Shown here: in pieces, positions 1 to 48,544 of the stretch
Position numbering within the stretch: the stretch's first letter is position 1
Layout of the letters: each line of letters opens with the position of its first letter
Origin: a virus
Virus record (IMG/VR): IMGVR_UViG_3300045988_141150
DNA: 64,000 nucleotides
Strand: one strand, 5' to 3'
Notes under the pieces: generated by a model
Databases searched by the model: none
Told to the model about the DNA's origin: nothing
Seen by the model: only the letters and a program-made list of their open reading frames with translations
Translations under genes and position numbers: made by a program

Positions 1-1584
1 ATTAGTCCCAGAAGTAGTTATTTGAGTAACACCTTCAGCATTTTTCCACTAATATTCATAAATTCCATTTCCTAACTCACTAGTATTAGTGATATTAACA
101 ATATATTTTCCATTTTCAGTTTTTACTTCACCAGTAGGCACTAAATTGATAGGATCAAAATAATTAGTAAAATTAATTGGACCATAATCTATATTATCTT
201 TATTTTTATACCCATGAACTGTTAAAGTATAATTATCTTCTTGAGTTAAAGTTACAGTTTTTTCATTGCTAAATTCAGACCCATTCTTTGTCCAAAGATA
301 AGTACATTGAACTCCTTCATCATTCTACCCAATAGCAGTAATTGTATTAGAAGAGCCATAATAACATCCATTATCAGGAGAGGGATCAAGAATAATTTTA
401 AAATCTTCACTAATACCTTCCACAACAACACTTAATCCTACCCATTTAACTTCTCTACTTACTTGATTTGCGGTCGTACCATAGGCAGTTACACTATAAC
501 TTCCGCACCCGTCGACTTCACAATATTGGACTTTTAAATAAAGATCATTCTTTTTAGCAACATAATTCTCAAGATTAATATCGCTACTACTATTAATATA
601 AGTATCTCCATTTTTAGTGAAATAAGTCAATTTTTCGTTATAGGCCATATCTCCGCTAAAAATACTATTATCATCAACAATTTTTTTGTATTCATAGCCA
701 ATACCATTTTTTAATTCAGTATTAGTTCCTCTATAATTACAAATCCATTTATATTCAATAGTAGTATTGTCTGGATTGTTTAAAGTATCATTATAAGCTA
801 AAGCATATAATTTATCACCAGTTAAATAAACTGATTTATTATTTAAAATACTTGTCAAGAAAGCCACATTATCAGGGACTCCAAAGCCCGCAGATTTCTT
901 TGAATCAATTAAACTTTCTAAATACCCAGTTAAATAATCAACAGGTTGCGCGGTAATTAAGTCTTCATCAATGTCTAAAGTTTTATTAATAACCATTTGC
1001 GCGGGTAATGTATTAAATACATACATTAAATTATTATTATCTTTTGGATTTTTTTTGAAGAAAATAATAGAAAACTATAAAGTACCAGGTTCACTAGTTA
1101 CTTCATCACTAATTTGCCAACCAAAAATTAATTTTCCAGCAGTACCAATATCGGGGCAAATAGCTTCAGAATAACCTTGAATTTGATCGTTCAAATAATA
1201 CTAAATATAAATTTTAATATCATCAGCTGCTAAATCTTGTAAATCAAAATATCTATCAATTTGGAAATAAATTGTTTCTGCCAAATGATCATTTTCAACA
1301 GTAAGTAGTTGAGTTTTTCCAAATTCTTTAGTTAATTCAATTTGACGAGTATCAGCATTTATATTTATAATAGGCTCATCTAAGGGTATGCGAAGAACAG
1401 ATGGATCTAGTTTCTTCATTTGAACAATACCAGTGATGTTACTATAATAGTCTTCAATAGATTTTATTTCAACGATTTTTCCATTAACGTTTTTTATTTT
1501 ATTATCTTTAGCTAAAGTATTAATTTTCTTTTGAAGTTCTTCCCACTTAGCTTGTTCGATAACACTATCATTTTTAACTATCAA
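1..1584 (-). CDS. large virion/host-interaction protein with in-frame TAG codons, N-terminal part only; C-terminus lies left of the window
   Basis: ORF fragments 325..1026 and 1201..1584 share a frame and both end in TAG (cta on + strand); TTG start at 1584 with AGGAAGAG-like RBS; Gly/Asn/Thr/Tyr-rich beta-type composition. Confidence 0.4.
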
Positions 1585-1606
1585 ATCTATCTCTTCCTTT
1601 CTAAAA

Positions 1607-1650
1607 AAATTAGGTTAAATAGTTTTTTTCCTATTTAACCTAATTTTTTT
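1607..1650. terminator. bidirectional rho-independent terminator (A-tract, 13-bp stem, T-tract)
   Basis: aaaaaaattaggttaaatag-ttttttt-cctatttaacctaatttttttt palindrome directly downstream of minus-strand gene 1680..1880. Confidence 0.55.
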
Positions 1651-1679
1651 TATATTTAAATCAATGTATTCTGGCCTAT

Positions 1680-1880
1680 TTAAACCTCATACCATTCTTT
1701 TAATTCATTTTCAGGAACTAAAGGAGAGATGGAAAAGAATTCTTTTCCATCTCTTGTTAATTTTTTATTGTAATCTGCTATTAATCTATATAAAGTAGTT
1801 GCAGGAATTCCTGTTAATTGAATAGAAGATTCAATAATACCATTAGAACCCATATATCTATAAACAATTTCTTTTTCCAT
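1680..1880 (-). CDS. small protein (66 aa), possible HTH DNA-binding protein
   Basis: intact ORF; ATG at 1880 with GAGGAC RBS 7 nt upstream; TAA stop; segment GIPATTLYRLIADYNKK is HTH-like; no TAG. Confidence 0.5.
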   Translation of the reverse strand: MEKEIVYRYMGSNGIIESSIQLTGIPATTLYRLIADYNKKLTRDGKEFFSISPLVPENELKEWYEV

Positions 1881-1889
1881 AATTTGTCC

Positions 1890-4800
1890 TCACTTTACAA
1901 TAGGCTCTTCTTCAAAATTCGCTCTATTGGATATCATTGCTTCATAAATATTATGTAAAGTATTTTTAACACTTTCACCATAACTAGCCACATAATAATA
2001 TCTAAAACGACCTGTGTATCCATTAGCAACAGTAGGCATACCAGTTTGACGAGGAGTAAAAATATTACCAGAACTATCTGCTGTAATTTGTTTAATTGGG
2101 TGTTTATTAGTACCAATCTATACTTGGATAGCACCAGTATAACCTTTAAACTAATTACCAGACATATTTAAAATTGTCTGGCCAGAAAATGCATTTATAT
2201 CAAAATTAAGAATACCGTCTTTGCATCCCTCTATAATTAAATTATAAGGAGAATAAGAACCCATCTTACTTTGATAAAATGCTTGAGCTCCAAAAGTCAA
2301 ACCTTCAGTAGAAGAAGAATAAGGAATTATGTTATTACGGCTTAAAGGACATTGATAAAATGCTTTAGTGCCAATTTTCTTTAAACAATCACTAAATTGG
2401 AAATATTCTAATCCGCTATCTAAAATAAAGGCATAATCATCTATTACAGAAATTTTATTACTATCTTTTGGAGCAAAGAATATAGCAGTAATATTAGGAT
2501 TTACCTGAATACCAACTGCTGCTGAGGGGTTAACTTGACTATATTTAATTCTTGTAATTGGCTAACCATTATAAGTTGTAGGTAAAGTAATTTTGCCTTT
2601 TAAATTCTTAGCTAAGTCAGTCATTGCAAATGATAATTCTCCATCAGAGTTTATAATATCATAATATTTATGAGTAGCATCATTAGTTAAAATATTATCA
2701 TAAACACTAATCGGCTCTCCAACAGCATAAAATTCGCGGTCAGCATAGGCTAGTTGTTTAGTTAAATCAATTTTAACTCCATCCTTATCCGCCCATCCCG
2801 TCTATCTCCAAGTCCACTCTAATGGGTCTTCGCCTTCTGGTAAATCAGATACTTCTGTATTATTAAAATAATAGAATTCTTTTGGAACAGTAATTTTTTC
2901 ACCATAATTAAATACTTTCTTTACAGTTGAATCATTAATAATGCGGTCACCATTAACGAAAGTGATCGTATAAGATTTACGCTCAAATCTCGCTTTAAAA
3001 ATATAATCCATTTTATTAGGTTGTAAAGACAAAGAATTCCAATCGCTTTTTAAAACAACGTCTTCTTCATTTACATTTTTTCCAACAGTAATTACTAATT
3101 CTCCCGTATCATCTTCCCAACCTTTAAAATCATAAGTTGGCATTTTTTCTTGTAAGCTACCAAAAGAAATATAAGTTTCACTAGAAGAATTTGTTGGATC
3201 ATCAAAGAATTCACTGCTAGATAAGGGTAATTTCTAAGTTTTTAGAACCTCCTAAATTAACACTCCATCAATATCTTCTTTTTCTAAAATAAACTTGGCA
3301 GAACATTCTTGTTTAACGTTTTCTACAAAAATTATTAAATCAGGGTATTTATTCTATAACTCAGTCTAGATAATAGATTCATCAATCTAATTATTATTTT
3401 TTATATACATAACACCAGATATTTCTGGCTTATTAGTATTAAGACCCCTATAATTATTATAAATATCAATTAATAAATTATAATCAGTTATTATACTATG
3501 ATTATTATTGTCTCCATTTATTGTATCTAAATAATAAATCTGATTATTTTTAATATCAGATTTTGTTATTTTATTAACCTAATCTTTTGGAATAGCTACC
3601 AACTAAAAATGTCCATTATCTCTATAATAAGATTTTCTTTCTGGATCAAGAGTTGTTTTAGTGTCAGTCAGAAGTCTATATGGACTCCACTAAACATTAT
3701 TTAAATTAATAATACAATTAGATAAATCTAATTTACTATTTTTACTAGCTGAAATATATTTGCGTAATAATTTATAACTATTATAGCCTAAATTGCCACC
3801 TCGAATATCAAAAGTTCTTATCTCAGTTTTTTCTTTTCCTTCTTCAGCATCGGTAAGACCTTGAATATATAAACCACGATTTTCATCTAAAATCTCAAGT
3901 TTTCCAGTAATCGGATTTTTTTTAGGATATACATAATTAGTTATTAATTTCGTTAATAAATTAGCTTCTATTAAACTTAAATAATTTGTTCGATTAGTTA
4001 AATATAAAGTATTTAAAGCTACTCCAGGAGCGAAATTAACTCTCGGAATATTAGATTTAGTATTTCTAAAGTTTTCAAGTTTTTCACTTTTAGTTAAATC
4101 TAATGCACCCTAGTCTTTTTTAAAGTTAATATTACAAAGATTCATTTCTTTAAGTAAAGGCATTCCACCTTTTGGGAAGGACCAGTCATTTACATCATTA
4201 TTAAAATATTCATTACCGCTTTCATCTTTTCCATCATATCCTAATAATAAATCAGTTAAACGCTCCATTTTTCCTTCAGCTGCAAACTCTTGGAAATATA
4301 ATTTACTTAAATCACCAAGGGATTTCATTTGATCCATTCCATAAATATAATATAATTGTTCTTTATAATTACCGCTACTCATAATTCCTTTTTTAATATC
4401 AGGAGCTACATATTTAACCGGTTCTAAACCATTATATTTTTTTGAAGGAAAATTTTCTCCATCTGTACCAATAGTAACATAGGCATTACGCGCGGGTTCC
4501 ATGTTGATCCAATATTCACCATCAAACATATGATTTTTTTCTTCGAATTCAGCACCATTTTTCCAATACTGAGAATTTGTAATTAATCCTTCCATATTTT
4601 GAGTGTTAGTACCTTCAATCCATTTATCTGATGTATTCTTAGGATTGTTCGCGGAAATACGACTTCTAATATAGCTTCCTCCACCGTTTCTGGCATAAGT
4701 GCCAACAGTCAACCAAGAGTCAATGTAATTAAGACGATTAGCTAAAAATTGCGCGCGATAAAGATTTCTATCTCCTTGCAAAGCATAAAAATATTTATCA

Positions 4801-7800
4801 TCTTCAACCTCATATGAACCTCCATCAGTTAAACGGCCAAATACTGGCATATTTTCAGCTTTAGAATTTGTTGGAATAATATATTTAAATTCTTCATCTA
4901 AGCTTAAAGCAATAATTGGTCGATCTCCTAAAGCGGCATAACTATCAAGAAATACTGATGGATCAGTACGATACCATTTATCTACAATATCGCTCTTTTT
5001 AGCCCCTGCTCCTGCGCCTTTAGTAAAAATTTTATTTACTCTTGAATCATTTGGGCTATAAGAATTATTTTGAGTTCCCATTAATTGCTTATATTTATCT
5101 ACCATTTTATTCTTAAAGAAAGTATAAAAATTATTCCAAAGAACACTATCATTAGTCGAAAAACTTCCTTCTTCAGTAGCATCAATATAATATTCAAAAG
5201 ATGGGATACCGGTATTATTAATACCTAGTTGAGTATCAATATCATAAAAGATAGGATACCAAATATAATGCTATTTACCGGTAGATTTTTGAACATTGCC
5301 TTTTTGCGGACCCCAAGAAGCAAACATTGCATTTTTTCCACGAGAATCATAACATTCAAAAATTTCCGTCATCAAAAGATAAGAAGCCAAATATTCGATA
5401 TCAAAGAAATTACTTAATTCATTTTTAAATTTAGCTTGACGGTATTCTTTACTATCTTTAGTATAAGTAATAGAATCATAAGTTACTGGTTTAGGCAATC
5501 TCCATCTTTCATCAATAAGATCTTCATTTTTAACAAAAGAATAATAATCTAAAGAAGAATTAAATTTATCAGAACTTAATACATAAATTTCATTTTTACT
5601 ATCAACTAAAAGGTAGTAAGTATTTGTTTTATATACTTTACTCAAATCATTTGTAAGTTTTATACTTATATAATTTACTTTATTATTTTCATTAATCTAT
5701 TTATAATACCTTAATTCAGGATTATAATCTTCAGAAGCTAATTTATAAATAATTTTTCCATCTTTATTAACCCCATCTTCGATGTAATATTCATTAGGGG
5801 TGTATATAGCTGCTGCAAGTCCTTCAACTTTAGTATAAGTACCCATAGATTGAAGCTCTAATTTCTATCCATCCTCAAACTCAATCTTACCACAATCTAA
5901 ACAGGTACTCCATACCCAACTAACTGCATCTTCCCAGTTAGACATTAAAGCTAAGAGCAATTCTTGTTTACTTGTATTATTACCAACATTAAATTCTATT
6001 TCTTCTCCATCTGGATTTTTTATAATCCATTTAATAGATTTTACACCAGTAATTTCATCAATTATTTCTTTTTTAATAAGCCTATCAGGAGCTACATTTT
6101 TTAATTCTTCTCCAACAATCTTAGTCTATGTTCCATCTGGGTCATCCCAGTCTTTTAAATTAAATAACTATTCAGCAATTAAATCATCATTTGGATTATA
6201 TCTTGGTTCAAAAGAATCAACAACTTTTGGAGCGCCTTTAACTAATTCAGGATTATCTCCATCTGGAGGAATTACCATATTAGGATTCCTAAATGATAAT
6301 TTATAACGATTCCAAGGGTCGCGGAAAGAACAATATGTTCTTGAATTATTCTAAAATTCCCAACATTCAGCAATATCTCTTACTTTTGGAGTTCCATTAA
6401 TTTGATTCTATAAAACCTTTTTATCAGGCTTAAATCCATAGCATTCATCTGACCCTTTGTCTAATAGCATATTATATTTACCAATAAAAATACAATTACT
6501 GCTATTTTCTTTAGAATATGTATTATCATCATTAGACATATAATGGAAAGCTAAAACTGGGAATCCTTTCACTGAAGTACGATAATCTTCTAAATTTCCA
6601 TATAAATTATAATTATCAAAAGAATCTTTATAATCTTCTACGGGATGTTTAGAATAAATTTCATTAACTAAATTAGCAAACCCTCTATTATAATCTCCTG
6701 AAGATTCCATAAAATCTATTTTTAAAGTAAACTTAGTAGTACCAACTGTTTTATTATCCATATAAAACCATTCTAAATAACAAGGATGTTTAGTTATATC
6801 TTCATTATACTAATCTCCTGCTTTTTTATAAGCCTCAGCAAATGGGCCTCTATTTAAAAGCATTGATTTTTTACATTTAGCCTTATAATTACGACGAGGA
6901 TAAAATTGTGAAGAAGTGCCTTGGACTTGAAAAGTACATCCATTAAGAACAGTTATAAAACTAGGGCAATGATGTATATAATAATTCTATACAGCAGTAT
7001 ATTTTATTGTTTCTATCCCAGTCTCTTTATTTTTTTCAATTACAGGTTTCCATCCTTCTTTTATAGCAACTTTTTCTAATTCGCCACTATTATAAGCAGC
7101 ATCTAAAGCCGTATTAACAAATTCTAAAGTTCCTTCCTAACTTCCTTTTGCTTTAGAATAAGGTAATCTATTATCTGTGTTGTTTTTATTATTTTTAGTA
7201 GTTCTTAAAATAATATAAGGCATTAAAGGATCAGTAGGATGATTATCATTATACTTTTTCATTTTAGTATAAGAGAATACATCATCTTTTAATACCGTGT
7301 TATTCTCGTAAAGGTCTTTTTGATCCCATTGTTTTATACTTCTTTTATCAAAAGCATAATTTTGGACTATTTCAGGAATAGTTAAATCTGTATCATAAAC
7401 TCTAATACTATAAATATCAATATCACAAGTATTAGACATAAATTTAATGGAATCAGAATCAATATTCCAAACATCACTATTACAACGTACAACACTAGTT
7501 AAAACGCCATTCATAAAAATTTCTAATAATTTAGAATTTCCGCCTTCTATATCGCTTTTCTTTTTAGTATAAACAAATGAAAGATTTAGCATTTCATTTT
7601 CAATAAAATCAACTGAAACTGTTTCTTGAGCGCCATTAGCCGTAAATACAGCATCCTATGGACTAAAATAAATACCAGGAGAAACGGAACTTCCTAATTT
7701 ACCATACACACAAACTAAATTCTTTAAATTAAAATCTTGTTCTATTTTATTATACTCTAAATCATCATAACTATAATTAGTTGTCGGTAAATATTCTTTA

Positions 7801-9638
7801 ATTAAAAACTCATCATAATTAAGATATTTATTTTGAGCTTTAAATTTATCCCAAGCATCATCATCTTCCCAATTATCTTTACTTACTTTATATCTAGTAT
7901 ATTTAGTTATAACTTTAGCATAATTTTGAGGATTTTTTATTTTAAATTGAACCTCAATAGTAGCAGATGATGATCCATCTTTAAAAGCCATTTTCCCAAT
8001 TGGGATAGACACCTCGGCACCATTACTTACTCGCAAACAAGTCGTATTGTTTTCATCGAAAATCCAGCCATTATTATACCAATTAAAATTTTTAAATTCT
8101 ACGTATTTATTATTATTAATTAAATAAGTTTCACGACCTAATTTTCCCTCTGAGTTAGAACGACCAGTAGCTATAAAATTAACTTTTAAATTATCTTTTT
8201 TTGCTAATTTCATATCTCTTAAAGGATCAATTAAAATTGTAAAATTAAAATTACGAGAATAAGAATAAGGATCAGTACCAACTTTAATAGTATAATAAGA
8301 ACTATCATCTACAGTTAAATTAGTAATTTCCCAATATTGCCATTCTCTAACTTGTGAACTATCTAATTCTCTAGTTCCTACTTGGACGCCATTCTTATAA
8401 AGAGTTATAAAAGCTCCATTATTATTTGGGTCTAATACTTTAAAAGGAATTCTTATTGTCTCATAAGTATAATATTCTGTCTTAAAATCTTGCACCCAAA
8501 TTAAAGGCATTTTATTGCCTGGTTCTTGAATAACAATTTCCTTTTGAATAAAATCTGTTCCCGCGCCTTTTTTAGAATTATTCATTAAATATAACTTTGC
8601 TTTTATTATATGCTCACCATGAGTAAAATAATTTTTTAAAGTAGAAACTTTGTCAATCCCTAATATATTTGTATCAGGAGTAATAACAAAAGAATCTTCA
8701 GAAGAAGAATCAGTATCACTATAAGTTCTATCTAAAACTAAATAGTCATCAAAATAAACTTCAACAGATCTAGCGATATCTTCAGACATTAACCAGCTAA
8801 CAGATATTTGTCCGTTATCAATTGGACTATCATTACTAAAACTACTTTCTTTCCAACTGAAAGAAAGATGGTGCTTATTAATATTAATAGTGTCAGAGTT
8901 TTTCTAAAATCTATTATTTTCTTCATCAGGATTATAATAAATGCTAAAATTAATCTCACTAGAACATGAATTTCTTAAAATATTAGTTAAATCAATTTCT
9001 TGTGGAACATTATGTTCATAAGTAGTAGGAGGAGAAGTATAATATACTTCTTTTTCTGTAGCACTTTTAATTTCACTTATAGTTATAATTCCTTGCACAG
9101 AAGAAGATTGCGGAATACCACCAACAGTTCTACATTTAACCAAAACTTTTACTTTAACATTTTCTTCATTTAAGATATCAACAGGGCTGTCAGATGGAAT
9201 TCTTGTTAAAGAAACAGTTCCTAAAACTTTTTGTTCAGAGTCTCCTTCTCCGCCACCGCCCGCCCCGGCGACAGTTAATTTTTCACATCTCGCACATTCT
9301 TCGCGGTTTTCATTTAAAGCAAAACCTAAAATTCGATAAAAACATCCATCTAAATTTAAAATTAAATCATCTATATGACAATTTGTTATAGATAATTTTG
9401 ATAAAAGAATTAAATAAGCCACTGGGTTTTCATCCGCATCATATTCAATTTCCACAGTATTATCTGTACCGTAAATTACCTGAACACCACTAGACCCTAT
9501 TGGCATTTTATTTTCAGTTGCTGTATCTAAATAAACTCGGCCTGTATCTGTTGCAACATAAAAATATCCATCGCTTTGAGGATATTCTTTTATTTTTTCT
9601 TCTGGGCCCTATACAGGACGAAAACGTATTTTAGACAT
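1890..9638 (-). CDS. tail fibre / host-specificity region: one or more very large TAG-dense CDS in a single frame (up to about 2,580 codons); internal boundaries unresolved
   Basis: ATG at about 9638 with CTCC RBS 7 nt upstream; ORF fragments 8904, 7656, 7137, 6408, 5271, 4110 and 2802 are all in the same frame and all end in TAG; the gaps I translated (5106-5270, 6762-7136, 7593-7655, 8790-8903) hold no TAA or TGA; TGA stop at about 1890. Confidence 0.35.
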
Positions 9639-11418: not shown

Positions 11419-11432
11419 TTTTTTTCACTCCT

Positions 11433-12014: not shown

Positions 12015-12063
12015 GATAATCGACTCCTTCCTATTATTTATAAAATCTTTTTAATCAATACTA

Positions 12064-12096
12064 AAAGGGTTTGGCCTGTTAAGACCAAACCCTTTA
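12064..12096 (-). terminator. rho-independent terminator
   Basis: aagggtttgg..ccaaaccctt hairpin followed by a T-run on the minus strand, directly after the TAA at about 12103. Confidence 0.5.
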
Positions 12097-12102
12097 TTTA
12101 AA

Positions 12103-17043: not shown

Positions 17044-17152
17044 ACTCCTCTACCGCCTTTCTTAAAGTATCAATAAATAAAGTATAAGTTTCATCTATAG
17101 TCTTTTGTAATTCTACTACTCTTCTATTGTATTTTTTTATACAATCCTGAAT

Positions 17153-23584: not shown

Positions 23585-23620
23585 AAAGGGTGAAGCCTAT
23601 AAGACTTCACCCTTAATTTT
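23585..23620 (-). terminator. rho-independent terminator after the tape measure gene
   Basis: agggtgaag..cttcaccct hairpin plus T-run on the minus strand immediately after the TAA. Confidence 0.5.
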
Positions 23621-23623
23621 ATT

Positions 23624-29600: not shown

Positions 29601-31877
29601 TATTCCAAACTATTCTTTTAAAAATTGTACTCGAGCACTTATTTCAATCGCAGTATCAGATAATAAATCCCCCGCATTTACATTTTCTAACTTTTCGAAT
29701 TCTTCTCTAAAAGCTTTGACATCTAATTCTCCATTTTCAAAACGAGCTGATAAATTTCTCACTGCTTTAGCGGATTCTGTTAAATGTACCTAATCTAATG
29801 CTTTAGCTAATATTTCAAACTCAGCATGAAGCTCGGTAGATCTATTTTTTAAAATCCCAATTTTTTCATTAATGGTATTTAAAGCAGCCGCTCCTTGGTA
29901 TCCTGTATCTACGACACCATTTAAACTTTGTCTTATTTGTGAATAACTTTTTAAATTATTTTCTATACTACCATTTTTAGAATCATTTCTTATAATTGAT
30001 CTTAAATCAGTATTAATGCTCTATAACTCTTCAGTTACCTAGTCTTTAGCCTAAGCCGCCTTAATAACCTAATCTCCATAAGCCTAATTAATTTTAATTA
30101 AATTTTCTAACTATTCTCTTTCTTGTGAAGTTATATCACCAGAAATTTTCTAAATTTCTTTTTTTAATTCTAAAGTATATTTTAATTGTTCACCAGAAAC
30201 AGCATCTGCTTCAGTAACATTATCAAAAGCCATATTAGATGCTCTAGTATAAGCTTCTTCTTTCATCTACTCAGCAGAGCGTTTAGTGTATCCTACCAAA
30301 GACTATATACCAAATCCAACATTACTTAATCCCTAAGCGATTTGCTTATTAAAAACTTTGGTAAATATAATTCCAACAGCAGCAATTACTCCTGGTAAGC
30401 CACCCATACTTTCTATTAAATCATTTATTTTATCTAAAACGTCGGCTAATAAATCGTTTAATGTAATAAAAAATTTATCATTAATCAGCTCAGCATAGAC
30501 GCTCTATGCAGCTGCTTTTACTCTGTTACTAGCAGCTTCCCAAGATTCCGCATAAATATCAGCTTGTTTTTGAAGAGATCCATCAGCACTCTATGCTCTA
30601 GCAAGATTTTCTTTATAATAATCAAAATGGTCCATCAAAGCAATTAATTGAGTATATTGACGGACACCCGCAACCTATTGTGCTAAAGCCACTTGCTAAT
30701 CTTTATTAATACTCTGCCATTTATTACCCATTTCTTCGATGATGTTATCCATATCTTTTAATTCACCATTAGAATCTTTGATATTAATTCCAACTTTTTC
30801 AAGAGCCTATGAGTATTGATTTAATGTAGTACCATCTTCTAAAGTTTCGCCAAGCTTCAAGCCTTGAATACGAGCAAAGATAGTTTTTAAAGCTGTACCT
30901 ACGACATCTTCACTTTGACGAGTAGTAGCAGTAATAGTAGCTAACGCGGCAGCTGCGTTATCAAAGCTTAAACCAATAGTATCAGCGACAGCGGCGAATT
31001 TTTCAAGACCGCCAGCAATTTCGTCAGAGCTAGATGCGGTATCTACACCTAAGCGCACCATCGCATCAGCGTAATGCTCTAATGATTGACTTCCATCATA
31101 AAAGTTATTCCAAACAGCAGTCATCTGATCTGAAACTATTTCAGCACTTTCACGAGCTACATTTGCCATTTTAATAGTAATATCAGTGCGTTCTTTTACC
31201 TATTCATCATTTAAACCCTATTGATAATAAATTAAAGCAGCGTCAGTATATTCAGTAGTAGTTGTGCTTAAAGTTCTGGCCGCGATATTTGCCTATTTAG
31301 CAAATTTAGCCATCTAATCAGAGCTCTAACCTGTAACAATACGGATATTATTTAAAGATTTATTTAAATCTTGAGCGTATCCATAAGCAGTCTAAACTGC
31401 TCCCATAAAACTATGAATTGCACTTGAAGAAATCTGCCAACGAACTGTATTCTTCATAACAGTCCACATTTCAGATACTAAAGCACTTGTTCTTTTTAAT
31501 GGAACGTCAGCCTCAATAATAGATTGAGATAAAGTCATAAAGGCCTTTTGGCCTTCTGGTCCTAATTCCATTAAATTACTCTATAATTTTTCTAAGTTTA
31601 AATTACTCTATCTTAAAGACTAAGAGAACTTAGTCAAATCCATTTTCCCAGTTTTTATATTTACCGTTTGAGATAAAATAGTCTATAACTTAGAAGCGGC
31701 TATTTGTGCTTCCGTCAATTCTTTTGTTATAGGTAATTTTTGAGTTTGAACTTCATTTATTGAAGACTTCAATAAATTATCTAACTAAAATTGCAAATCT
31801 CTAATTTGATTCTAAGCTGATTTAGCATCAGTAGTAAATTGTAAATTAACCTAATAACTATTTAATTGTTTAGCCAT
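23624..31877 (-). CDS. tail tape measure protein (about 2,750 aa, TAG about every 80-100 codons)
   Basis: ATG at about 31877 with AGGAG RBS; N-terminal segment (ORF 30807..31169) resembles the TP901-family tape-measure core; Ala/Gln/Glu-rich helical repeats; transmembrane segment (ORF 28812..29036); same frame from 30807 to 25143, then followed by hand to TAA at about 23624. Confidence 0.7.
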
Positions 31878-33874: not shown

Positions 33875-34858
33875 TTAGCCTCCAATAGCAATGGTGCTAT
33901 TAGCAGCGGTCTTTCTACGAATATCGTTGTCAACAGTTTCGTCTTCTTCAATAATCTGAATAGCAGCCAAAACTTTCTTACTATGATCGAAACGAGTATA
34001 ATCAGGGAATGCGTCCATAGTAAAAGTGAAAGTGGAAGGATCACCAGAAGAAGCCATTGTAAAGTTAAAGTTGGATTGAATCTTGCAGTTAGGAATAATA
34101 AATTCAGCAGGCATATCTACGCCGTCTTGATTGCGGAATAAGGTAGAAGCTTCAAGATAGTAGTTACCACCGAACTTATCAGCAGTAATTTCAATCTGCT
34201 TAGCGCCAGATTCACGCTCAGTATAATAATCAACCATTACGGAGTCGCATTTAGCATAATCATTCTCTAAATCGTTAGTGGTATAAGCCACTCCACTAGC
34301 ACGATCAAATCCTTTTACGGTAATACTAAAACCAGTCTCTCCCGTAGTAACTCCTTCATGCGCCAGATAAGGCTCAGAAATAATTTCGCCATCTTTCATA
34401 AAGAAAACATAAACATAATCGTCATCTTTATGCTCATTATCAAGATAAGGGGCATAAGAAACAGGAACGATTAGTCCATCAGTCTTAATGTTTTTTCCAG
34501 CGTTAGCAGGGACAATGTCTTTAGTCTTATCAACAGTTTGAGTAATATGTTGCTTAATCTTATTATCAGCAGAAGCCTCAACAAGACCAGCACCGGAAAG
34601 AATCATGAAACCTTCAGGAGAAATAAGAGCATCTTCCATTGTGAAGGTAACAGTACGCTCGCCTTCCCATGCGACTAAGTTAGTATTACCACGACCACCT
34701 TGTGCGTATACGGTGGTAGCAGCGCCTTCCATACTGGAAGTCTTTAAAGTGTCGAAATAAATAACTGGCTCATTCTTATAAAATTGCTTATTACCAATCT
34801 TTTGATTAGCCTTTGCCTTTAAAACGACATCGCAAATTTCGCGTACACCAAATTTCAT
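33875..34858 (-). CDS. major tail (tube) protein candidate (327 aa), TAG-free and GC-richer
   Basis: intact ORF; position upstream of the chaperones and tape measure; roughly 40% GC against roughly 28% for its neighbours; TAA stop. Confidence 0.5.
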   Translation of the reverse strand: MKFGVREICDVVLKAKANQKIGNKQFYKNEPVIYFDTLKTSSMEGAATTVYAQGGRGNTNLVAWEGERTVTFTMEDALISPEGFMILSGAGLVEASADNKIKQHITQTVDKTKDIVPANAGKNIKTDGLIVPVSYAPYLDNEHKDDDYVYVFFMKDGEIISEPYLAHEGVTTGETGFSITVKGFDRASGVAYTTNDLENDYAKCDSVMVDYYTERESGAKQIEITADKFGGNYYLEASTLFRNQDGVDMPAEFIIPNCKIQSNFNFTMASSGDPSTFTFTMDAFPDYTRFDHSKKVLAAIQIIEEDETVDNDIRRKTAANSTIAIGG

Positions 34859-38822: not shown

Positions 38823-39929
38823 TTAGACATTGCCATCAAGACGGCCATCATAAGTGACAACCTTACCGGTGACTCCATCATAATTCCAAGTATACATCTG
38901 ACCGAGAAGTGAAGTATCAACATAGGCACAGATGTTATTAGCAAGCATACAAACTACGCCAACCTTCTTGTAAACCTGAATCTCACGAGAACGATCATAA
39001 TTGTTAAACTCGTCAACAATAGTGCCGCCTTCGAAAGCAATCTTTACAGGCTTACCATCAGCGCCCGTAGGAATAACCCAAGCATAACCAGGATCAATAA
39101 CCTTACGAGTATTGGTTTCATCTTCAAAGCCCTGCTCAAGAATAATAACCTTAGTGCCCTTGTAAGTAGCAAGACGACCATTATTCCAAAGCTCGTTCTT
39201 CATAGCTTCAGTATATCTCCAAGCCTCATGAGGAATCATCTTAACAGCGAACTCATAAGTGCAATAAATAGTAGGAGTACCATAAGCAGAAGCAATAGTA
39301 ATCAAACGATCCATAGCCGCTTCATCAAATCCGGCAGCCGCAACGCGGTTAGCAGGAGGAAGTTGATTGATAGAAGATCTAAGAGCAGCAGCAACTTCTT
39401 TATAAATAAGTTCATCCATACCATCCATGATGATCTTGGTTACTTCACCAAAATCAACACGACCATCAAGGAACTCTTCGAAGCCAATCTGAGCAGCTCC
39501 GCCGATAGCGCTAGTACGTACCTCGAAGGCTTCATTCTCTTTAGGTCCGAGCTTGAAGACTTCATAAATACCAGCAAGACCAACGCGAGTTACAAACTGT
39601 TTAGCACGAGCACGATTATTAAGAGGACGACGGAAGACAGGCTTATCACCCTGAGCGAAAGTCTTAACCTCAGCAAACTGATCATATTGCTGAATAACTT
39701 TCTTAGGAAGAACCTCATCAAGAGTCTCCTCAATCATAGAGAAAATAAGATTCTTATTTTCACGATAAAGAGCGTAAGTACCAGCCAACTCATTCATTTC
39801 ATTACGAAGAGTTTCATTTAAGGCTTCATAACTAAGATTTTTTCCCTCATAACTATAAGCAACAGGAGCAGAAGGATCAGCCTTAGCAACTTGCTTCATA
39901 AGAGCAACTAAATTATTTTTATCTAACAT
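38823..39929 (-). CDS. major capsid protein candidate (HK97-fold-like, 368 aa), TAG-free and GC-richer
   Basis: intact ORF; size, composition and a helical N-terminal segment typical of HK97-type capsid proteins; follows the scaffold; roughly 42% GC. Confidence 0.5.
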   Translation of the reverse strand: MLDKNNLVALMKQVAKADPSAPVAYSYEGKNLSYEALNETLRNEMNELAGTYALYRENKNLIFSMIEETLDEVLPKKVIQQYDQFAEVKTFAQGDKPVFRRPLNNRARAKQFVTRVGLAGIYEVFKLGPKENEAFEVRTSAIGGAAQIGFEEFLDGRVDFGEVTKIIMDGMDELIYKEVAAALRSSINQLPPANRVAAAGFDEAAMDRLITIASAYGTPTIYCTYEFAVKMIPHEAWRYTEAMKNELWNNGRLATYKGTKVIILEQGFEDETNTRKVIDPGYAWVIPTGADGKPVKIAFEGGTIVDEFNNYDRSREIQVYKKVGVVCMLANNICAYVDTSLLGQMYTWNYDGVTGKVVTYDGRLDGNV

Positions 39930-39946: not shown

Positions 39947-40864
39947 TTACTTAATACGCATTACCTTGACGCCCTTTTGACCATCAGGCATAGTATAAAC
40001 TTTAACAACCTGCCAGATCATTGAATCGTCACCAGTTTTGCTAAGAATACCCTTTGTAGCAGCAGAAGGAGAAAGTTTATCTCCAACAGCAAGAGTCTCT
40101 TCATTAATCATATTAGTAGTGTAAAGATCACCAATCATGGTCTTAAATACACGAGGAACCATAGAAGTGCCAGATTCCATGAACTTCTCATGATAGATAC
40201 CTAACTTATGATATGGATCATTGGTCCAATTTGCTTCATATATATCAGGAACATCAGTAAGAAGTTTATCATAGTAATACTTTACAGGAACATTAGCAAC
40301 CTGATGATTACTATCAAGAGTATATTCATTACCATCATAAGTAAACTTGCCAGTTTCATCAACATCATAAACACGGCCAGCAATAGTAACAGTCTTTAAA
40401 CCCTGATCAGCGGAAACGGTCTGATTGATCAATTTATAAGTTTGACCCTTATCATCAACGCCGTTCCAGAAACGACCACCATATTCAACCTCGGTATGCT
40501 CCCAATCATAAGGGCTATAAACACGAGCCTGATAGTCATCCTTAAGCATAGCAAATTCGCAATCCCACTGCTTACTGCCATCAGAATGATCACGATAAAG
40601 CTTAATCTCGTTATAAACGAGCATCCATTCACCTTCGCCAGTAAAGTTGACTTCGCCGATACCATTACCATTAGCAGCATAGTCATACTTTACAAACTGA
40701 CCGTTTTCAAGAATCTCAATGTCTTTATTGGCGGGAAGTTGAGCATAGATTTGAGCATTTCTTTGTGCGGAAAGGTGATTAGGCTCGACCTGACCGTAAC
40801 CAAACTCAACATACTTTGCCTGAGACTTAATAGGAAGATTCTTATTCAAAAAGTCTTTAAACAT
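39947..40864 (-). CDS. abundant head protein of unknown function (305 aa), TAG-free
   Basis: intact ORF between the scaffold and the capsid gene; higher GC. Confidence 0.4.
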   Translation of the reverse strand: MFKDFLNKNLPIKSQAKYVEFGYGQVEPNHLSAQRNAQIYAQLPANKDIEILENGQFVKYDYAANGNGIGEVNFTGEGEWMLVYNEIKLYRDHSDGSKQWDCEFAMLKDDYQARVYSPYDWEHTEVEYGGRFWNGVDDKGQTYKLINQTVSADQGLKTVTIAGRVYDVDETGKFTYDGNEYTLDSNHQVANVPVKYYYDKLLTDVPDIYEANWTNDPYHKLGIYHEKFMESGTSMVPRVFKTMIGDLYTTNMINEETLAVGDKLSPSAATKGILSKTGDDSMIWQVVKVYTMPDGQKGVKVMRIK

Positions 40865-40881: not shown

Positions 40882-42471
40882 TTAATTTTTGTTGGCGGTA
40901 GCAAAAGCCGCCTTCACCCAAGCGGGCATATCATCATCTTCTGAACCATTATTGTTCAAATTAAAAGTAGTAGCACCATTGGGCTTATTATTTTCGTCAA
41001 GGTCGAAACTCACCTTGTTGCGAACACAAATAACAGATAATTTAGCTTCAATATCATCAAGAGAATATTTATCAATATTTTTAACAACATCAGCCTTATC
41101 TTCATCAGAAAGCATATAGAATTTAGCAATCATATCTTCTTTATCTTTCTTCTCAGCAGCATTTTTAAATTCAGCAAGTGGAGCAATTTGCTCTTTCAAG
41201 CTATTATTTTCAGTTTCAAGAGCCGCGAATTTAGTCTGTAATTCATCATACTGAGCTTTAAGTTCAGTATATTCAACGACATCTTCAAGAGAATAATTTT
41301 TCTTTTTCTTTTTATCATCGTCATCATTCTCGCCTTTGTCGCCTTTGTCAGACTTATTAGAGGGTTCTCCATTATCAGGATTCTTCTTATTATCATTGCC
41401 CTCTGATTTATTATCAGGGTTTTGGCCATTAGATTTATTATTTTTGTCCTCTTCCTCAGCCTTTTTCTTTGAAGCATAATTAGTCTCAAAAGCTTCAATA
41501 TCAGCAAGAGCAAACTGAGGCTCTGCTGCCGGAGTATAAGACTTAGTTACTTCAGTTAAAGCGTCAGAAGGAACAAAGCCTTCTGCATCGGTAAGAGAAA
41601 AGTCCATGCGATAATATTTTTGATCTTGTCTATTTTGAAGAATAGCAAACTTTTGTCCAGCATCTTCATAAACGCCTTCAATGCGATAAATAGAACAATA
41701 ACTACTAGGCTCGCCAGGATACTTAGTCTCAATATAAGACCAGAGAGAATTCCACAAACTATCGCCAATTTCAACAGCATATTGTGTAAACACTTTGGGT
41801 CCTCCTTCTTTCATAAATTCTTTAAGTTCATTCATCATGGAGAACAAAGTGTTCTTAAAACCATCATCGAATGAAAAATTCACATTGATTTGGGAGCCTT
41901 CGAAACAAGGTTCATTTTCTTCTCCCAAAATACAAAGTTTAGAAATAATTGCCTTATTTATAATAAAAAACTAAGGCTTTCCATTACTATCTTTTGCCCA
42001 CGTAGCATTTAATGTTTTTTCATCAAGCTCCATAGAATGATTATTCCCTTTATCAACTACACGTTTACATTCAGGATACTAACCAGTCCACAAATAACCT
42101 TCAGTCATTAAATATTCACGTTCGACAACACCATCATCCAAAAATTTCTAGAACCAAACTTTAGCTCCAAGATCAACAAAACCATAAGGGCGAGTATTAT
42201 CTCTCATTCTAAATTCGCCATTAGATAATTCAATTATCCTATTATGTTCTTCAAAATCTTCGGTATTTTCGTTAAAAAAGCCAACAATAGGACTGCCTGG
42301 AAGACTATTAGCCATCTCAGTCGCTACATCTTTAGTGATTACGCTTTTATTACGATTAGGCTTATCATCTACATAGCAAACCTTAATTTGGCATTTAGAA
42401 ATTAAAGGATTTACAGGAGTTATATTTATAAACTCACAAGGTGTATTTAATTTAATACTTGTATGTTTCAT
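40882..42471 (-). CDS. scaffolding protein, possibly with an N-terminal protease-like domain (about 529 aa, 3 TAG in the N-terminal third)
   Basis: ATG at 42471 with GGAGG RBS; frame followed by hand through 3 TAGs into ORF 40882..41928; acidic, Lys/Asp/Glu-rich coiled-coil C-terminus typical of scaffolds. Confidence 0.45.
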
Positions 42472-42480
42472 AAATCCTCC

Positions 42481-44130
42481 TTATTTCATTGCTTCTTTAT
42501 TTTGAATAGTTTTTTCACTTTTCTAATCATCAGGTTTTTCCGGACGTCCTGCTTCGCCATTAGAAACTTTAGCAGTTCCAGAACCTGAGCTTCCTGAATT
42601 ATTTTGAGTTTTATTATTAGATGATGAACCTTTTAAACCCAAAATATCTTCACTACCCATAGTAGAACTCATAAGAGGAGGAATCATAATTTCACTTAAA
42701 TGTAAAATCTCATTTTCAAAATGAGCTGCATTAAGAATAAAACTCTATGAATGTCCAAGAGCAATCTAAGACAATAGTTTTGATTGTCCCATTTGCGCTT
42801 GTTCTTTATACATTTTAGAAAGTGTTTGATAATTATTCTGAGTAGTTTCTAATAAATAAAATCTAAAATTATATTTCTTATTACTACTCTTTTTTTCAAT
42901 AATTCTATTAAAGAATATATTAAACTATAAAATTAAACTTCTTATTGTAGATTCATCATTTAATACTGATTTTTCTAAAGCCATATTGCCATCAGTATTA
43001 AACAAATTCTATGAAATACCTAATGAATTATAAACACTACGTTCAACTTTAGCTAAATCATCTGTCGTTGTAGTAGTATTTTTATCAGACATATCAATAG
43101 AATCTACATCAGTAAATGTAGTTAAAACATCTACTCCAATAGCCCTCTATAACATCTAAACGGCATTATTATGGATATCTCTGGCTTCATCAACATCAAA
43201 TATCAAATCACCATTTTTATCCATTGGGAGCTTTTGGACTAAAATTTTAAGCAACTTCTACATTTGTTTCTTGCGGTCAAGATCTTGCGCTGCATCTAAA
43301 TCCATAATAGTAGGAATGGAATTTACAAAAATAGGAACATCACTATTATTAATATTAAATTTAATACAATTTTCTGGCTCAAGAACATACCAACTACCAG
43401 TATGCTAGCATCCAACCGCATCTTCTAAAGCAAGTTTTCCTTGCTTATATAAAACATAACCTTTAGCAAATTCTTCTGGGAATAATTTTAATACTTTTAA
43501 GCGATAATTCATATCTTTAAAAGTATCAAAAAATCGCATATCAAATTCGACAACTGGGATATTATTTACACTATAACGTGTTCTACAATATCTAACTGGC
43601 AATTCTTGTAAAATTAGATTTTTCTCTGAAGGAACTATATATCCATAATAGCATCCATTTTTAACAACTTGCAAAGCAATATCTCCACAAATCTTTTTAA
43701 TATAACTATTATCAAAATAATTCAACATTCTATAAAAATCTTTTAAAACTTTTTCTTCTTTTACATTATCATCATAAGTTTCGGCTGCAATATACCAATC
43801 ATAGCGGTATAAAAAAGCAACATAATTACAAACTCGTTGATATACACCACTTATATCATAATAAAAATTAGAAATGTATCGCAAAGTATTTAAATCTCTT
43901 TCTGCGAGTGCGCGAAGCACATCAGGTTTCGTAATAATACGATTTTGACCTGGGTATCTAATCTTACTATAATCACCAAGTTTTAAAATAGCATCATCTA
44001 AAGTTTTTGTGCCAACTTTTATTTTTCTATTGGCATAATCCGTAGCATCATTATAATTATATTCACAACGACCATTATAAATATCAAAACCTTTAGCATG
44101 AATCTAATCATTACGATCTTGCGTATCCAA
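42481..44130 (-). CDS. portal protein (about 549 aa, multiple TAG)
   Basis: TTG start with GGAGG RBS; frame followed by hand into ORF 43405..43920; TAA at about 42481; size and position between terminase and scaffold. Confidence 0.5.
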
Positions 44131-44143
44131 AGTTCCACCTCCT

Positions 44144-44500: not shown

Positions 44501-44512
44501 TTTCCACCCTCC

Positions 44513-46066
44513 TTAATTTAAAAAGCACCAATCAGCTGCATTAAACTTTTTACGTTTTTTCTTTTTATCTTCTTCAAGTTTTAAATAATATAATCCATAT
44601 TCAAAAGCCGAAAATTTATCTTTACGAATTCCGCGATTTGCTTGTTTTAGAATAATATTAATACCTTCATTTTCTTCGCGTAAATTCATCATTTCTTCTT
44701 TTAATATGGAGGTTAAAGTAAATGGTTTTAAATAATCTGCCCTTTGTTCAGGAGTCATTTTTGAACCTTTTTGAGTAGCTAATAATTTTTCTTTAGCCGT
44801 TCTCTCATCTATTAAGAATTTTACCTTACCCGCTTGTAATTGAGTCTGAGCATTAGCATGACATTCAGTATTTATTGGAGCATTTGCTTTAATAACATAC
44901 ATAGCATCAAATTGAGTATTTGGTGTGCGATATTTTTTATAATATCCATCATCATCATTCTCAACGCCAAAATCAGGTAAAAATTCACCATCTTCATCAT
45001 TTTGAGATTTTACCATATAATCTAAAAGCCCAATACCTAAACCATTACCGTCTATAACTAAAGTTTTAGCTTTATATTTATAAAATAATTTCTTTAATTT
45101 AATAGCCTAATCTTCAAAATGATCATCTGACATAGTATACATATTTACTAATGATTTAATAGCTGGACCTTGAGCTTGTGGTGTTACTTTAAATACACAA
45201 ACTACTGAATCGCATCCCTTACGGCCTACATCTACAGAAAGCACATAATAAGCTTGCGCGCCCGCACGTCCAGAAGCTTCATACTCAGGCTATAATAATT
45301 TTCTATTTCTATCAAAATGCTCTCCATTAAAGAAAGCATCTTCAACAGTTCCTGACCACTTAGATTCATATTCACGCTCAAATGAGGCCTCGTTATAAGT
45401 TCCTTCATTCTTTTGGTCAGTAATAAATGTCTTACTTTGTAATCCTACCGCAACAGGAGTTCGCCATGTTCCGCCTAATACCATACAACGATCGGGCTAA
45501 GTTACCATACGAACTAAGAAACCAATAAGTCTATCATAAGGGAACGTGCCCTTATAACCAGCAGTAGTAATATAGATTTGTGATTTATTTAATGGCTCTT
45601 GCTCATTGGTAGTGCCATCTTTAGCTCTACGGGAAATTGCCATAACAGGAATAATAACTTCACGAAGGATGGCATCATCAATACCAACACACTCTTCCAT
45701 TAGTCCACCATGACGACGCTGACCACGAGTGCTTTCACGAGCTGCGAGGTTATCTAAAACTGAACCATTTTTAAATACATATCTAACTTTATCTTTTCCT
45801 TCAAGAGTTTTTCCTCGGCTCCAATCAATTTCTCGATTAAAACTTGGAATAAGTTCACATATTTCTTGAACTTTATCATGAAGAATACTAGCACCTTGTT
45901 CTTTACCTCCAGAAGTAACGAATAGATGCGCACCAGGATACAAAATACATCTAATCATTAATGCCATAACAGACAAAAATGATTTAGAATAAGCACGAGG
46001 AAAAACCGCGTAAACATACTAATAACGCATAACAGAACGGAGAAATACTCTCTAATAAAAATAAAA
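44513..46066 (-). CDS. terL: terminase large subunit (about 515 aa, at least 4 TAG)
   Basis: ORFs 45497..45976, 45290..45484 and 44513..45016 share one frame; ATPase-like N-terminal region and nuclease-like C-terminus; position upstream of the portal; TAA at 44513; start not resolved. Confidence 0.55.
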
Positions 46067-46251
46067 ATTAAATTCTCCATCTTTTATTTCAGTGCGTCTT
46101 CCTCGCACCATAAAATCTACAAATAAATCAGGATATTCTCTCCAAAAAGCAACGTATTTTCGGATGATGGGCATTACCGCCTCTACTCGCTCCGGTGATA
46201 AACCTATTTTTCTACGGCTATCACTTAACTACAGTAAATCTTGTAATGCCA

Positions 46252-47439
46252 TTATTTATTCAAACCCTATAAGAACTCATTATCTTGCGCGGACTCCTAT
46301 TCTTTAAATTCCTCAAAGTCCGCGTAATCACTATCTTTAATAGTTTTTTCAAGTTCTTCAATACTTAAATCAGCATCATCAACGATATCACTTTCCACGT
46401 TCTTTGCTTTCTCTTCATCTTCTTTAGCATTTTCGCGTAAAGCCTTTTCTACCATTGTGCTAATATTAGTTTCATCTTCAATAAGAGTGCGAGTATAACG
46501 TTGCATATCTTGAATAGTTAAATCCACTTTATCATGTGGCTATTCAACATAATATCTTTCAATATATCCTTCTTTTTCACACAATTCAATTAATTCACCA
46601 ATTGAATCAACAAATTCACCTGATTCTGCTTTATTTTGAGCAGCGGTAAATTTACCAGACTTCATTAAGCTATCGTATACTTTGCTCATCTTTTGGAAAC
46701 CTTCAATATCACCAATATCGATCAATTGATTTGCCTTTAAAGATGTCTTACATATTAATTTTAGCGTATCTTTGTGTCCGGCACCTTGAATATCATAAGA
46801 AGCCATCATTTCTTCATACAACTATTCAAGCTTAACCCATTCTTCAGGCTTATAAGTTTTGCCCCATTTAAGTCTTAAATAAGTGCGGTCTTCATCAGTT
46901 AAATCTAATTCTTGTTCCACTTCACCACTCTATTGTGCGAAATAATCTTCCGTAGGAGCATTAGGTGGTGGAGCATAAACCGGCTCTTTTAGTTCTCCTT
47001 CTGGAATAGCGATAGAACTTTTTTCAATAGCAGTTGCAATCTATTGAGCGTCATATCCTTGGCGTTTCATAGTTTGCTCTAATTTATTATTTGCCATCTA
47101 CTGTAAAAATTCTGTATCTTTCCAACGATAATCTTTAAACTATTTGAGTTTCATTTTTGACAAATAACGTCCAAGAATTGTCATACCGGTCATAGACTGC
47201 GGATCGCGCCCATATTTTTCCATTAATTTATTCCATTCGTCTGGGACATAAGGAACATCCGCTTCTTGTAAAATCCATAAATAAGTATCTGGATTCCAAT
47301 TATCGACGTGCATTGTCATACATTTTTTGCACACAGGGAATTTACCATCATTAGGATATTTTTCTAAATTATTAGATGAATAAAATTCCGTGCCATTCAT
47401 TGTGCGGTTACATTTTTCGCAATAATATGTTTCAGCCAT
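46252..47439 (-). CDS. hypothetical protein with N-terminal zinc ribbon (about 395 aa, about 9 TAG); possible small-terminase position
   Basis: ATG at 47439 with AGGAG RBS; CxxC..CxxC; frame followed by hand through ORFs 46540..46821 and 46297..46527 to TAA at about 46252. Confidence 0.35.
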
Positions 47440-47488
47440 AAATAAGATATTCTCCTTTCAATTATTTATTATAAACAAAAGGACAATA

Positions 47489-48544
47489 TTAAGATTTTTT
47501 GGCCTTAGAATTTCGACAACTTTTACAAATACTATAAAAGCCATCTTTACTTGTTTTATTTTTACTAAAATATTTATTGTGAGCTAATTTTATTTTGCCA
47601 CAACGACTACATTTTTTATATTTACCTTTTTCAACATTTAAATAATAATTATCTAAGTATTCATCTTCCGCAGTCGAAGCAATTAATTTTGGAATTTTAT
47701 TACGCCATAAACTTGAAATATATTCAAGGCTGTGCTTAATACCAAATTCCATTTGTATTTTCTCTTGAATGTCAATATTTTGTAAACCATCAATTTTATA
47801 TTCAACGATTCTATCATAAAGAGGATAATTAGCTAAAGCTTTATCACAAAGTTTATCAAAATCCTCCATTAAATACCATAAATCTTTATCATATTCGCCC
47901 CAACTATCTTGCTTTAATCGGGAATAATTACATAAAATCGCAGAACATATCTCAGGTCTTAATAAACTAATTCCATCAGGAATGGGAAAACCATCATCAT
48001 CAAAAATAAATGTTTCATCATCTAATGGAATATAAGACTTTGATCTGGTTAATTTTGTAGGCACTATTGGACGACGATAAGCATTTTTTATAACATACTA
48101 ATCTTTACGCATTTCAATAAGAGCCTTTTTAATAACAAAAGCATCTTTACCTTCTGTTACTTTTAATTTAGCCTCCCAAACATTAATGGCTTCTCTTAAC
48201 TAATTTAAACTTGGTATCTCTTCTAAATCTTTTTTTGTAATTGTAATATGTGGTTGAAATATTGTATTTCTATTATCTGTAATTAAATTATAAATTCCAT
48301 CTTCGCCATTTTCGAGTTGGGAAACAAGACCTTCAAAAGAAGTCTCACGTTTATTAACTGTAGCCATACGATTATCAGTTAATAATTTTTTCTCCTTTTT
48401 TTCTTGTTTCTCCATACAAAGAACCAAATAGTCTGCTAAAATTTCTAAATACTTTTCAGGCGGATCTGGATTATCAGCCAAAATTTGTTCGACTAATTGA
48501 TTTCTTTCTTCTGGAGTTTGTAAAGAATAATCAAGTTTTATCAT
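47489..48544 (-). CDS. first late-operon protein (351 aa if both TAG are read through; 114 aa if TAG terminates), C-terminal zinc ribbon
   Basis: ATG at 48544 with GGAGG RBS; TAG at codon 115 (48200) and a second TAG (48098); same frame continues into ORF 47489..48064; TAA stop. Confidence 0.5.

Follow-up and report, generated by a model that had tools for sequence, protein, structure and literature searches.

Why should the genes on one strand of a viral genome be interrupted again and again by a single stop codon, TAG? The question is raised by a stretch of 64,000 nucleotides from IMG/VR virus record IMGVR_UViG_3300045988_141150 (hereafter the window), in which a long block of late virion genes on the minus strand stands next to an array of early genes on the plus strand. 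A first reading of the letters alone (the original prediction) proposed that TAG had been reassigned to a sense codon across the whole late module and that the early genes on the right used the standard code. With the help of public contigs, the window was assigned to a 190,948-bp scaffold of a human-gut phage with a genome of about 191 kb. On the evidence below, this phage very probably combines an SPbeta-like siphovirus module with late genes written in genetic code 15, in which TAG stands for glutamine (Gln).

TAG as a sense codon in the late genes

We tested the minus strand of positions 1 to 48500, using stop-to-stop open reading frames (ORFs) of at least 100 amino acids (aa). Such ORFs covered 54% of the block under the standard code (code 11) and 97.7% when TAG was read as sense, which bears out the comparison of codes 11 and 15 that had been proposed; with TGA as sense, coverage was 55%. 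In this DNA, whose guanine plus cytosine (GC) content is about 29%, the longest stretches with TAG as sense ran to 2761 and 2584 codons, and frames that stay open for so long without TAA or TGA exclude a chance origin. Taking the first ATG of each ORF gave 26 non-overlapping late genes with 229 in-frame TAGs. In-frame TAA and TGA are absent from these 26 ORFs by definition; read in their two alternative frames, the genes contain 738 and 2326 of these two codons. The reassignment was visible in 20 of the 26 ORFs. It did not extend to the whole module in the literal sense, since six late genes have no TAG at all (0 of 53 Gln codons), among them those for the capsid protein, a 305-aa head protein, and the tail tube protein.

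The individual breaks agreed with this picture. At each of the 20 positions named in the original prediction, the plus strand reads CTA, that is, TAG on the coding strand. The named late gene ends at 9757, 14737, 33875, 38823, 44513, and 47489 are TTA (TAA), and that at 1890 is TCA (TGA). TGA had been noted as an end only once, and it is more frequent than that, as at least four late genes terminate in it (1890, 14379, 17021, and 37253). TAG does not serve as a terminator anywhere in the window, where all late and early genes end in TAA or TGA.

It could be argued that the late genes are simply broken, as in a decaying prophage or a nonsense-laden assembly, and that the fragments are pseudogenes or small genes. 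The fragmentation of the region to 54% coverage under code 11 is compatible with such decay. Every break, however, is a TAG and none is a TAA or TGA. The fragments between TAGs have a median length of 31 aa, and an in-frame start that has a Shine-Dalgarno motif comes within the next 30 codons of only 6 of the 229 TAGs (2.6%), which matches the rate at random in-frame positions (2.5%); the fragments thus do not behave as independent genes with starts of their own. Furthermore, the same pattern recurs in more than 60 independently assembled relatives with the protein sequence kept across the TAGs, and the exact capsid protein is present in 90 blocks of public assemblies. Given the exclusivity of TAG and its conservation in relatives, we regard gene decay as already refuted and give it next to no credence. 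TAG is a sense codon in the late genes.

Reading through TAG restores gene-sized proteins (Table 1). The tape measure protein reached the predicted length of about 2,750 aa, while the large terminase (TerL) turned out to be longer than the 515 aa first estimated. In public gene calls, both proteins already appear at full length (TerL, 579 aa; tape measure, 2752 aa), i.e., under code 15. The portal falls short of its predicted 549 aa when it is started at the first ATG (415 aa), but the frame is open for about 140 codons upstream of that ATG, to about 44120, and translation from a non-ATG codon could plausibly yield about 545 aa. Non-ATG starts seem to occur in several late genes; besides the portal frame, two tail fiber-like ORFs in 10503 to 12103 (minus strand) have no ATG start and were missed by our first-ATG gene model.

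Glutamine at TAG sites

The residue inserted at TAG was assessed against standard-code references, namely, three cultured phages and, later, 20 relatives of the same family in IMG/VR. TerL aligned through its six TAGs in single tblastn alignments, with 47% identity to phages VRE9_4 and H1, 46% to Geobacillus virus E3, and 44% to phAss-1; the standard-code phages to which it aligned in one piece were those of Enterococcus, Geobacillus, and Alicyclobacillus. Across 198 TAG positions aligned to the three cultured phages, Gln was the commonest residue (16.7%, compared to a background of 5.4%; P = 9e-9), and in a likelihood comparison over 20 amino acids it ranked best, 18.5 natural-log units ahead of serine (Ser). 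The TAGs at TerL residues 67 and 382 aligned to Gln in all three references and were the sole TAG sites at which all three agreed.

The 20 standard-code relatives allowed the comparison to be made at the level of codons. Those aligned to TAGs of the window were CAA in 39% and CAG in 10% of cases. Overall, Gln was found opposite 50.3% of TAG sites, 54.9% of CAA or CAG sites, and 2 to 6% of sites for glutamate (Glu), lysine (Lys), Ser, or asparagine, and the runners-up after Gln were Glu and Lys at TAG sites and at true Gln sites alike. Because the substitution profile of TAG sites tracks that of true Gln sites, the homolog alignments that had been suggested for identifying the residue point to Gln, and TAG in the late genes is read as Gln, as in genetic code 15.

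A different residue, such as pyrrolysine, Ser, Lys, or Glu, might be inserted instead. ARAGORN labels tRNAs with a CUA anticodon "Pyl" by default, and Lys and Glu are the residues next most frequently aligned to TAG sites. The profile at these sites nevertheless fits that of Gln (50% versus 55%) and that of no other residue, and the likelihood margin of Gln points the same way. In addition, the tRNA(CUA) genes of relatives, described below, have an ordinary GG D-loop, a TTCGAAT T-loop, and G73, unlike tRNA-Pyl, and no pyl genes were seen. We therefore judge a residue other than Gln to be highly unlikely. With TAG counted as Gln, it makes up 36% of the Gln codons in the late genes (240 TAG, 367 CAA, and 54 CAG; 11 of the 240 belong to a spurious ORF overlapping the tape measure gene) and 3% of the codons in the tape measure gene.

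Early genes and the decoding of TAG

The early array carries 32 near-perfect promoters of the form TTGACA-17 nt-TGnTATAAT over positions 48680 to 63628 (plus strand), about one per 470 bp, in line with the host-consensus promoters noted originally. Each is followed about 30 nt on by a strong Shine-Dalgarno site and then by a small ORF. A scan returned 92 promoter-like sites, compared to 36 ± 7 in shuffles. Among about 30 early genes, TAG occurred at 0 of 58 Gln codons, and the stops were solely TAA or TGA. The right-hand 15 kb can thus be read under the standard code, as had been stated, but it is neutral between codes, with TAG absent in any role. Genes without TAG are readable under either code, as a phage needs before it changes the decoding of the cell. 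The core of the original prediction, TAG as sense in late genes and absent from early ones, was borne out by ORF structure, homology through the TAGs, and codon-level comparison.

Two other accounts of the right-hand region were considered and rejected. The GC content steps from 29% to 43% near 49 to 50 kb. A prophage-host junction at this step is contradicted by the size of the 43% island (only about 16 kb), its phage early cassettes, and its retention beside the late module in relatives. Recoding of TGA was also dismissed: coverage on the right rises with any relaxed code, and the genes are just short, with their own promoters and Shine-Dalgarno sites and with TAA or TGA ends.

The composition of the early genes also bears on the possibility that TAG is an amino acid codon in the host already, in which case the phage would match its host and there would be no early-late switch. 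The lack of a suppressor tRNA in the explored half of the genome leaves room for this explanation. However, Gln is common in the early genes, and the absence of TAG from their Gln codons would be unexpected for an ordinary host codon, and recoded relatives carry a tRNA(CUA), whereas close standard-code relatives (87 to 88% identity in the capsid protein) do not. Related phage contigs have been binned into Bacillota metagenome-assembled genomes (MAGs), the promoter and Shine-Dalgarno style fits Bacillota, and the host is probably a member of that phylum; no Bacillota lineage is known to use code 15, which also counts against a recoded host. We consider it very unlikely that the phage simply matches its host, and we continue to favor an early-late split in the use of TAG.

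We searched for the tRNA that would decode TAG. ARAGORN found no tRNA in the 64-kb window, and between window coordinates -18.3 kb and +82 kb (about 100 of about 191 kb), neither ARAGORN nor Rfam found one except for a tRNA-like gene (see below). The explored flanks hold more recoded late genes, followed by genes for dUTPase, NrdG, NrdD, DNA polymerase III alpha, and a RecD-like helicase; these replication genes lie to the left of the window and carry about one TAG apiece. The neighborhood of nrdD, which was checked after the example of phAss-1, contained no tRNA. No release-factor family was among the precomputed Pfam matches of neighboring genes; the window scan covered ten late proteins, and no dedicated release-factor search was made.

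Candidate suppressors were found in relatives. A specific tRNA pattern scan of IMG/VR gave matches solely in a recoded subgroup with a 90%-identical capsid protein, where a tRNA(CUA) of 72 to 74 nt (TCCGGCTTGGAGTAATGGTAGCCCGCCTGACTCTAAATCAGG...) lies inside a 14-tRNA array. Its mismatched 1:72 pair and G73 are as in tRNA-Gln. Searches with array-neighbor proteins (DUF2828, RlaP-like, and a 116-aa protein) reached other subgroups only. Near a conserved array-neighbor gene, 11 of 16 recoded relatives had at least one tRNA(CUA), compared to 0 of 6 standard-code relatives (63 tRNAs), a contrast with a hypergeometric P of ~0.006. In the arrays of a standard-code subgroup, tRNA-Gln(TTG) and tRNA-Gln(CTG) stand in place of tRNA(CUA). 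The tRNA(CUA) of relatives shares just 60 to 70% identity with the phage's own tRNA-Gln(CTG) and tRNA-Gln(TTG), which gives no sign of recent descent from either. Across relatives, the arrays comprise 5 to 37 tRNAs interspersed with small genes and adjoin genes for a DUF2828 protein, an 829-aa protein resembling the major vault protein, and an RlaP-like nucleotidyltransferase; four array loci include a transfer-messenger RNA gene. In the recoded subgroup with the 90%-identical capsid protein, most array anticodons start with U.

Could the tRNA-like gene of the window, or another noncanonical factor, decode TAG in this subgroup? The gene at 51901 to 52012, the sole tRNA-like one in about 100 kb, encodes an RNA with canonical acceptor, D, and T arms. 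A strong early promoter of its own, a consensus site at 51860, serves the gene, and a T-run follows it. Recoded phages without a detectable suppressor are, moreover, on record in a published survey (10.1101/2021.08.26.457843). In place of a 7-nt anticodon loop, however, the RNA has a 50-nt irregular hairpin, with no properly placed CUA. The gene also lies in a 470-nt insertion (51546 to 52018) found solely in identical copies of the phage and in 0 of 80 IMG/VR relatives, including equally recoded ones with 98 to 99% identity in the sigma-like protein. On these grounds we rejected it as the suppressor, and decoding by such a noncanonical route seems extremely unlikely. The gene might instead be a decoy or a processing signal.

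We favor a mechanism in which early genes would be translated by the unmodified host machinery, after which a phage tRNA(CUA), encoded in recoded relatives in an array about 60 to 75 kb from the capsid gene, would be charged with Gln by host enzymes. As it accumulated, this tRNA would outcompete release factor 1 (RF1) at TAG, and only then would full-length late proteins be made. We infer the suppressor step from the relatives. By synteny, the tRNA(CUA) of the window phage would be expected at about +100 to +115 kb in window coordinates, equivalent to -90 to -75 kb on the circular map. A familiar parallel is supE of Escherichia coli, a mutant tRNA-Gln with a CUA anticodon that competes with RF1 at UAG and inserts Gln there. 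In contrast to that weak host mutation, the phage would run a built-in program over 229 codons.

Late genes are not equally exposed to such suppression. In 47 to 60 recoded relatives, TAG accounted for 1 to 3% of the Gln codons in the capsid, 305-aa head, and tube genes, compared to 26 to 53% in most of their neighbors; for capsid genes, the share was 1.4% across 60 recoded relatives. Abundant virion proteins presumably avoid TAG because ordinary decoding is faster or less leaky than suppression. TAG density runs opposite to the expected copy number of the protein, which suggests that it tunes protein output. As a separate observation, the tube, capsid, and 305-aa head genes have the highest GC content in the late module (38 to 41%).

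The first gene of the late strand encodes a sigma factor-like protein and has two TAGs. Left of 48.6 kb, no late-strand promoter other than that of this gene is a perfect host-type one. Among 49 relatives, such a promoter is kept in 31, and the gene has at least one TAG in 40. If this protein is a late regulator, a host-type promoter combined with TAGs in the coding sequence would mean that late transcription may itself wait for the code switch; the arrangement suggests gating of late transcription by suppression. Together with the tuning by TAG density and the transitions within the family described below, it leads us to propose, tentatively and with more doubt than confidence, that the code switch is a developmental checkpoint and not mere codon preference.

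Several points weigh against the reading of this genome as that of a code 15 phage with a suppressor-driven switch. No tRNA(CUA) was found in this exact phage in the roughly 100 of 191 kb explored, and the tRNA(CUA) type of the subgroup with the 90%-identical capsid protein was not found in the nearest (99%) subgroup in IMG/VR. For the host and its code, the only hint is the binning of phage contigs into Bacillota MAGs. Finally, the timing, the competition with RF1, and the sigma-like gating are steps that we only infer.

Virion module, family, and known TAG-recoded phages

Pfam and PHROGs were searched with ten late proteins of the window. The Pfam scan gave no match for nine of them, and their identities come from PHROGs and from precomputed matches to newer Pfam families. 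In the public gene calls, these families occur in the order YonG_N, YonD_N, YonB, YomW, YomV_2nd, YomU_Tube, and PhageMin_Tail; the PHROGs match of the 33875 to 34858 product is to a virion structural protein. Because the Yon/Yom and PhageMin_Tail families occur in conserved order, the late block is identified, at the level of protein families, as an SPbeta-like siphovirus virion module.

Table 1. Features of the window, with strand and the evidence for each
Feature	Coordinates	Strand	Description	Evidence
Late (virion) gene block	1..48544	-	229 in-frame TAGs, 26 ORFs, GC ~29%	
Tail or baseplate-region protein	1890..9638	-	2582 aa, 26 TAGs, TGA end	Called at 2582 aa in public assemblies
Tape measure protein	23619..31877	-	2752 aa, 80 TAGs	Pfam PF10145 PhageMin_Tail on identical public gene call
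Tail tube protein (YomU family)	33875..34858	-	327 aa, no TAG	Pfam PF27173 YomU_Tube, PHROG phrog_2729
Major capsid protein (YonB family)	38823..39929	-	368 aa, TAG at 0 of 11 Gln codons	Pfam PF27364 YonB
Head protein	39947..40864	-	305 aa, TAG at 0 of 14 Gln codons	Codon counts
YonD-like protein	40882..42471	-	529 aa, 3 TAGs	Pfam PF27290 YonD_N
Portal	42481..43728	-	415 aa from first ATG, 9 TAGs	PHROG phrog_2739
Large terminase	44513..46252	-	579 aa, 6 TAGs	PHROG phrog_2 (terminase large subunit), phrog_15503, phrog_24618
YonG-like protein	46252..47439	-	395 aa, 8 TAGs	Pfam PF27269 YonG_N on public gene call
Sigma factor-like protein	47489..48544	-	351 aa, 2 TAGs, first late-strand gene	PHROG phrog_5767 "sigma factor", E = 3e-54
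Host-type promoter	48569..48597	-	TTGACA, 17 nt, TATAAT; before sigma-like gene	Perfect (12/12)
Early gene array	48680..64000	+	32 consensus promoters, small ORFs, GC ~43%	No TAG as sense or stop
tRNA-like gene	51901..52012	+	112 nt	Rfam tRNA, 37 bits; not called by ARAGORN

The early array has further features of its own. Many of its small ORFs are followed by terminators, and among near-identical relatives it is a mosaic of present and absent cassettes; it also occurs in standard-code relatives. One cassette is found in five copies on the plus strand (53004 to 53260, 56533 to 56790, 58569 to 58825, 60214 to 60470, and 62530 to 62786), each combining a terminator hairpin with a consensus promoter and a transcript whose beginning forms a GC-rich hairpin. 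The arms of this hairpin covary among copies (CGGCGCGC/GCGCGCCG, CCGGCCGT/ACGGCCGG, and CGGCCCGC/GCGGGCCG), and it is followed by TTTGTCAAGAGG...GCACAAA, which is conserved, and by another promoter-like site. The cassette may represent a structured leader or a small RNA family. Directly after the array, a minus-strand cluster at about 66 to 68 kb in window coordinates (14892 to 17048 in a fetched locus) is also TAG recoded, with one to five TAGs per gene as counted in the corresponding stretch of another fetched locus. Recoded genes therefore lie in more than one block of the genome.

The window phage belongs to a large family. We found 121 contigs in IMG/VR with a capsid protein of at least 76% identity, many of them 190 to 201 kb long, and fetched 80 loci, of which 60 were fragmented under code 11 like the window and 20 were intact; the family as a whole has at least 481 relatives in IMG/VR. 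It mixes heavily recoded, lightly recoded (code 11 ORF coverage of 0.75 to 0.90), and standard-code members at 72 to 90% protein identity. The GC content of the late module is 0.36 to 0.39 in standard-code members and 0.33 in recoded ones. Standard-code relatives can be close, with an 87 to 88% identical capsid protein. These data point to several transitions between codes 11 and 15 among relatives with 87 to 90% identical capsid proteins, tracking the tRNA(CUA) in the same array.

Recoding of TAG to Gln in late genes, accompanied by suppressor tRNAs and by the disappearance of TAG as a stop, has been described for Lak phages, crAss-like phages, and six further gut-phage clades (10.1101/2021.08.26.457843), and it has been validated by metaproteomics (PMC9523058); the original prediction had noted the early-late split as known from some Lak and crAss-like phages. 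The clades of Borges et al. (Lak, crAss-like, Garnet, Amethyst, Sapphire, Agate, and Topaz; 10.1101/2021.08.26.457843) resemble the window phage and its family in the recoding of late genes for structural proteins and lysis but not of early ones, a suppressor tRNA (here in recoded relatives), a codon lost as terminator, close relatives that differ in code, and low GC content. A genome of about 190 to 200 kb and a presumed Bacillota host would fit their large-genome clades, a comparison made by description only.

The original prediction pointed to the split in a siphovirus-type genome, but such a genome is not new: phAss-1 and its relatives are siphovirus-type gut phages of 133 to 138 kb with TAG as Gln and tRNA-Sup(CTA) genes (PMC10607447). 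The likeness to phAss-1 (proposed Phassvirus group; Babkin et al. 2023, PMC10607447; "Caudoviricetes code 15 clade" at NCBI) extends to the human-gut siphovirus type, the very long tape measure protein, TAG as Gln in terminase, portal, tape measure, and other late genes, a TAG-free major capsid gene, and a terminase of the same YonF/SPbeta-like lineage (44% identity); phAss-1 also has tRNA arrays with tRNA-Sup(CTA). A member of the proposed genus Phassvirus should share synteny with phAss-1 and be about 80% or more identical to it in nucleotide sequence. In a megablast search, the phage collection gave no nucleotide-level match, phAss-1 included. The genomes differ in size (133 to 138 kb versus about 191 kb) and gene order, and the suppressor tRNAs of phAss-1 lie directly upstream of nrdD, while none lie beside nrdD here. 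TerL, too, is only 44% identical. By these comparisons, the window phage is not a Phassvirus.

The same virion-module families are found in SPbeta-like Bacillus phages, Enterococcus phages EF1, VRE9_4, and H1, and Geobacillus virus E3. With these phages, the window shares YonG, a YonF-type terminase, YonD, the YonB capsid, YomW, YomV, and the YomU tube. All of these phages, however, use the standard code throughout. The phenomenon itself is already known, and what the window family adds to the TAG-recoded phages is a large family with an SPbeta-like module and probably Bacillota hosts.

Annotation under code 11 shreds two thirds of the virion genes, and pipelines that handle this abundant gut phage family need to read its late block in code 15. 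Members with full, light, and no recoding occur together in the family, which could serve the study of how and why code switches originate. If the code switch does act as a developmental checkpoint, the family would provide a natural series for studying the evolution of a code change.

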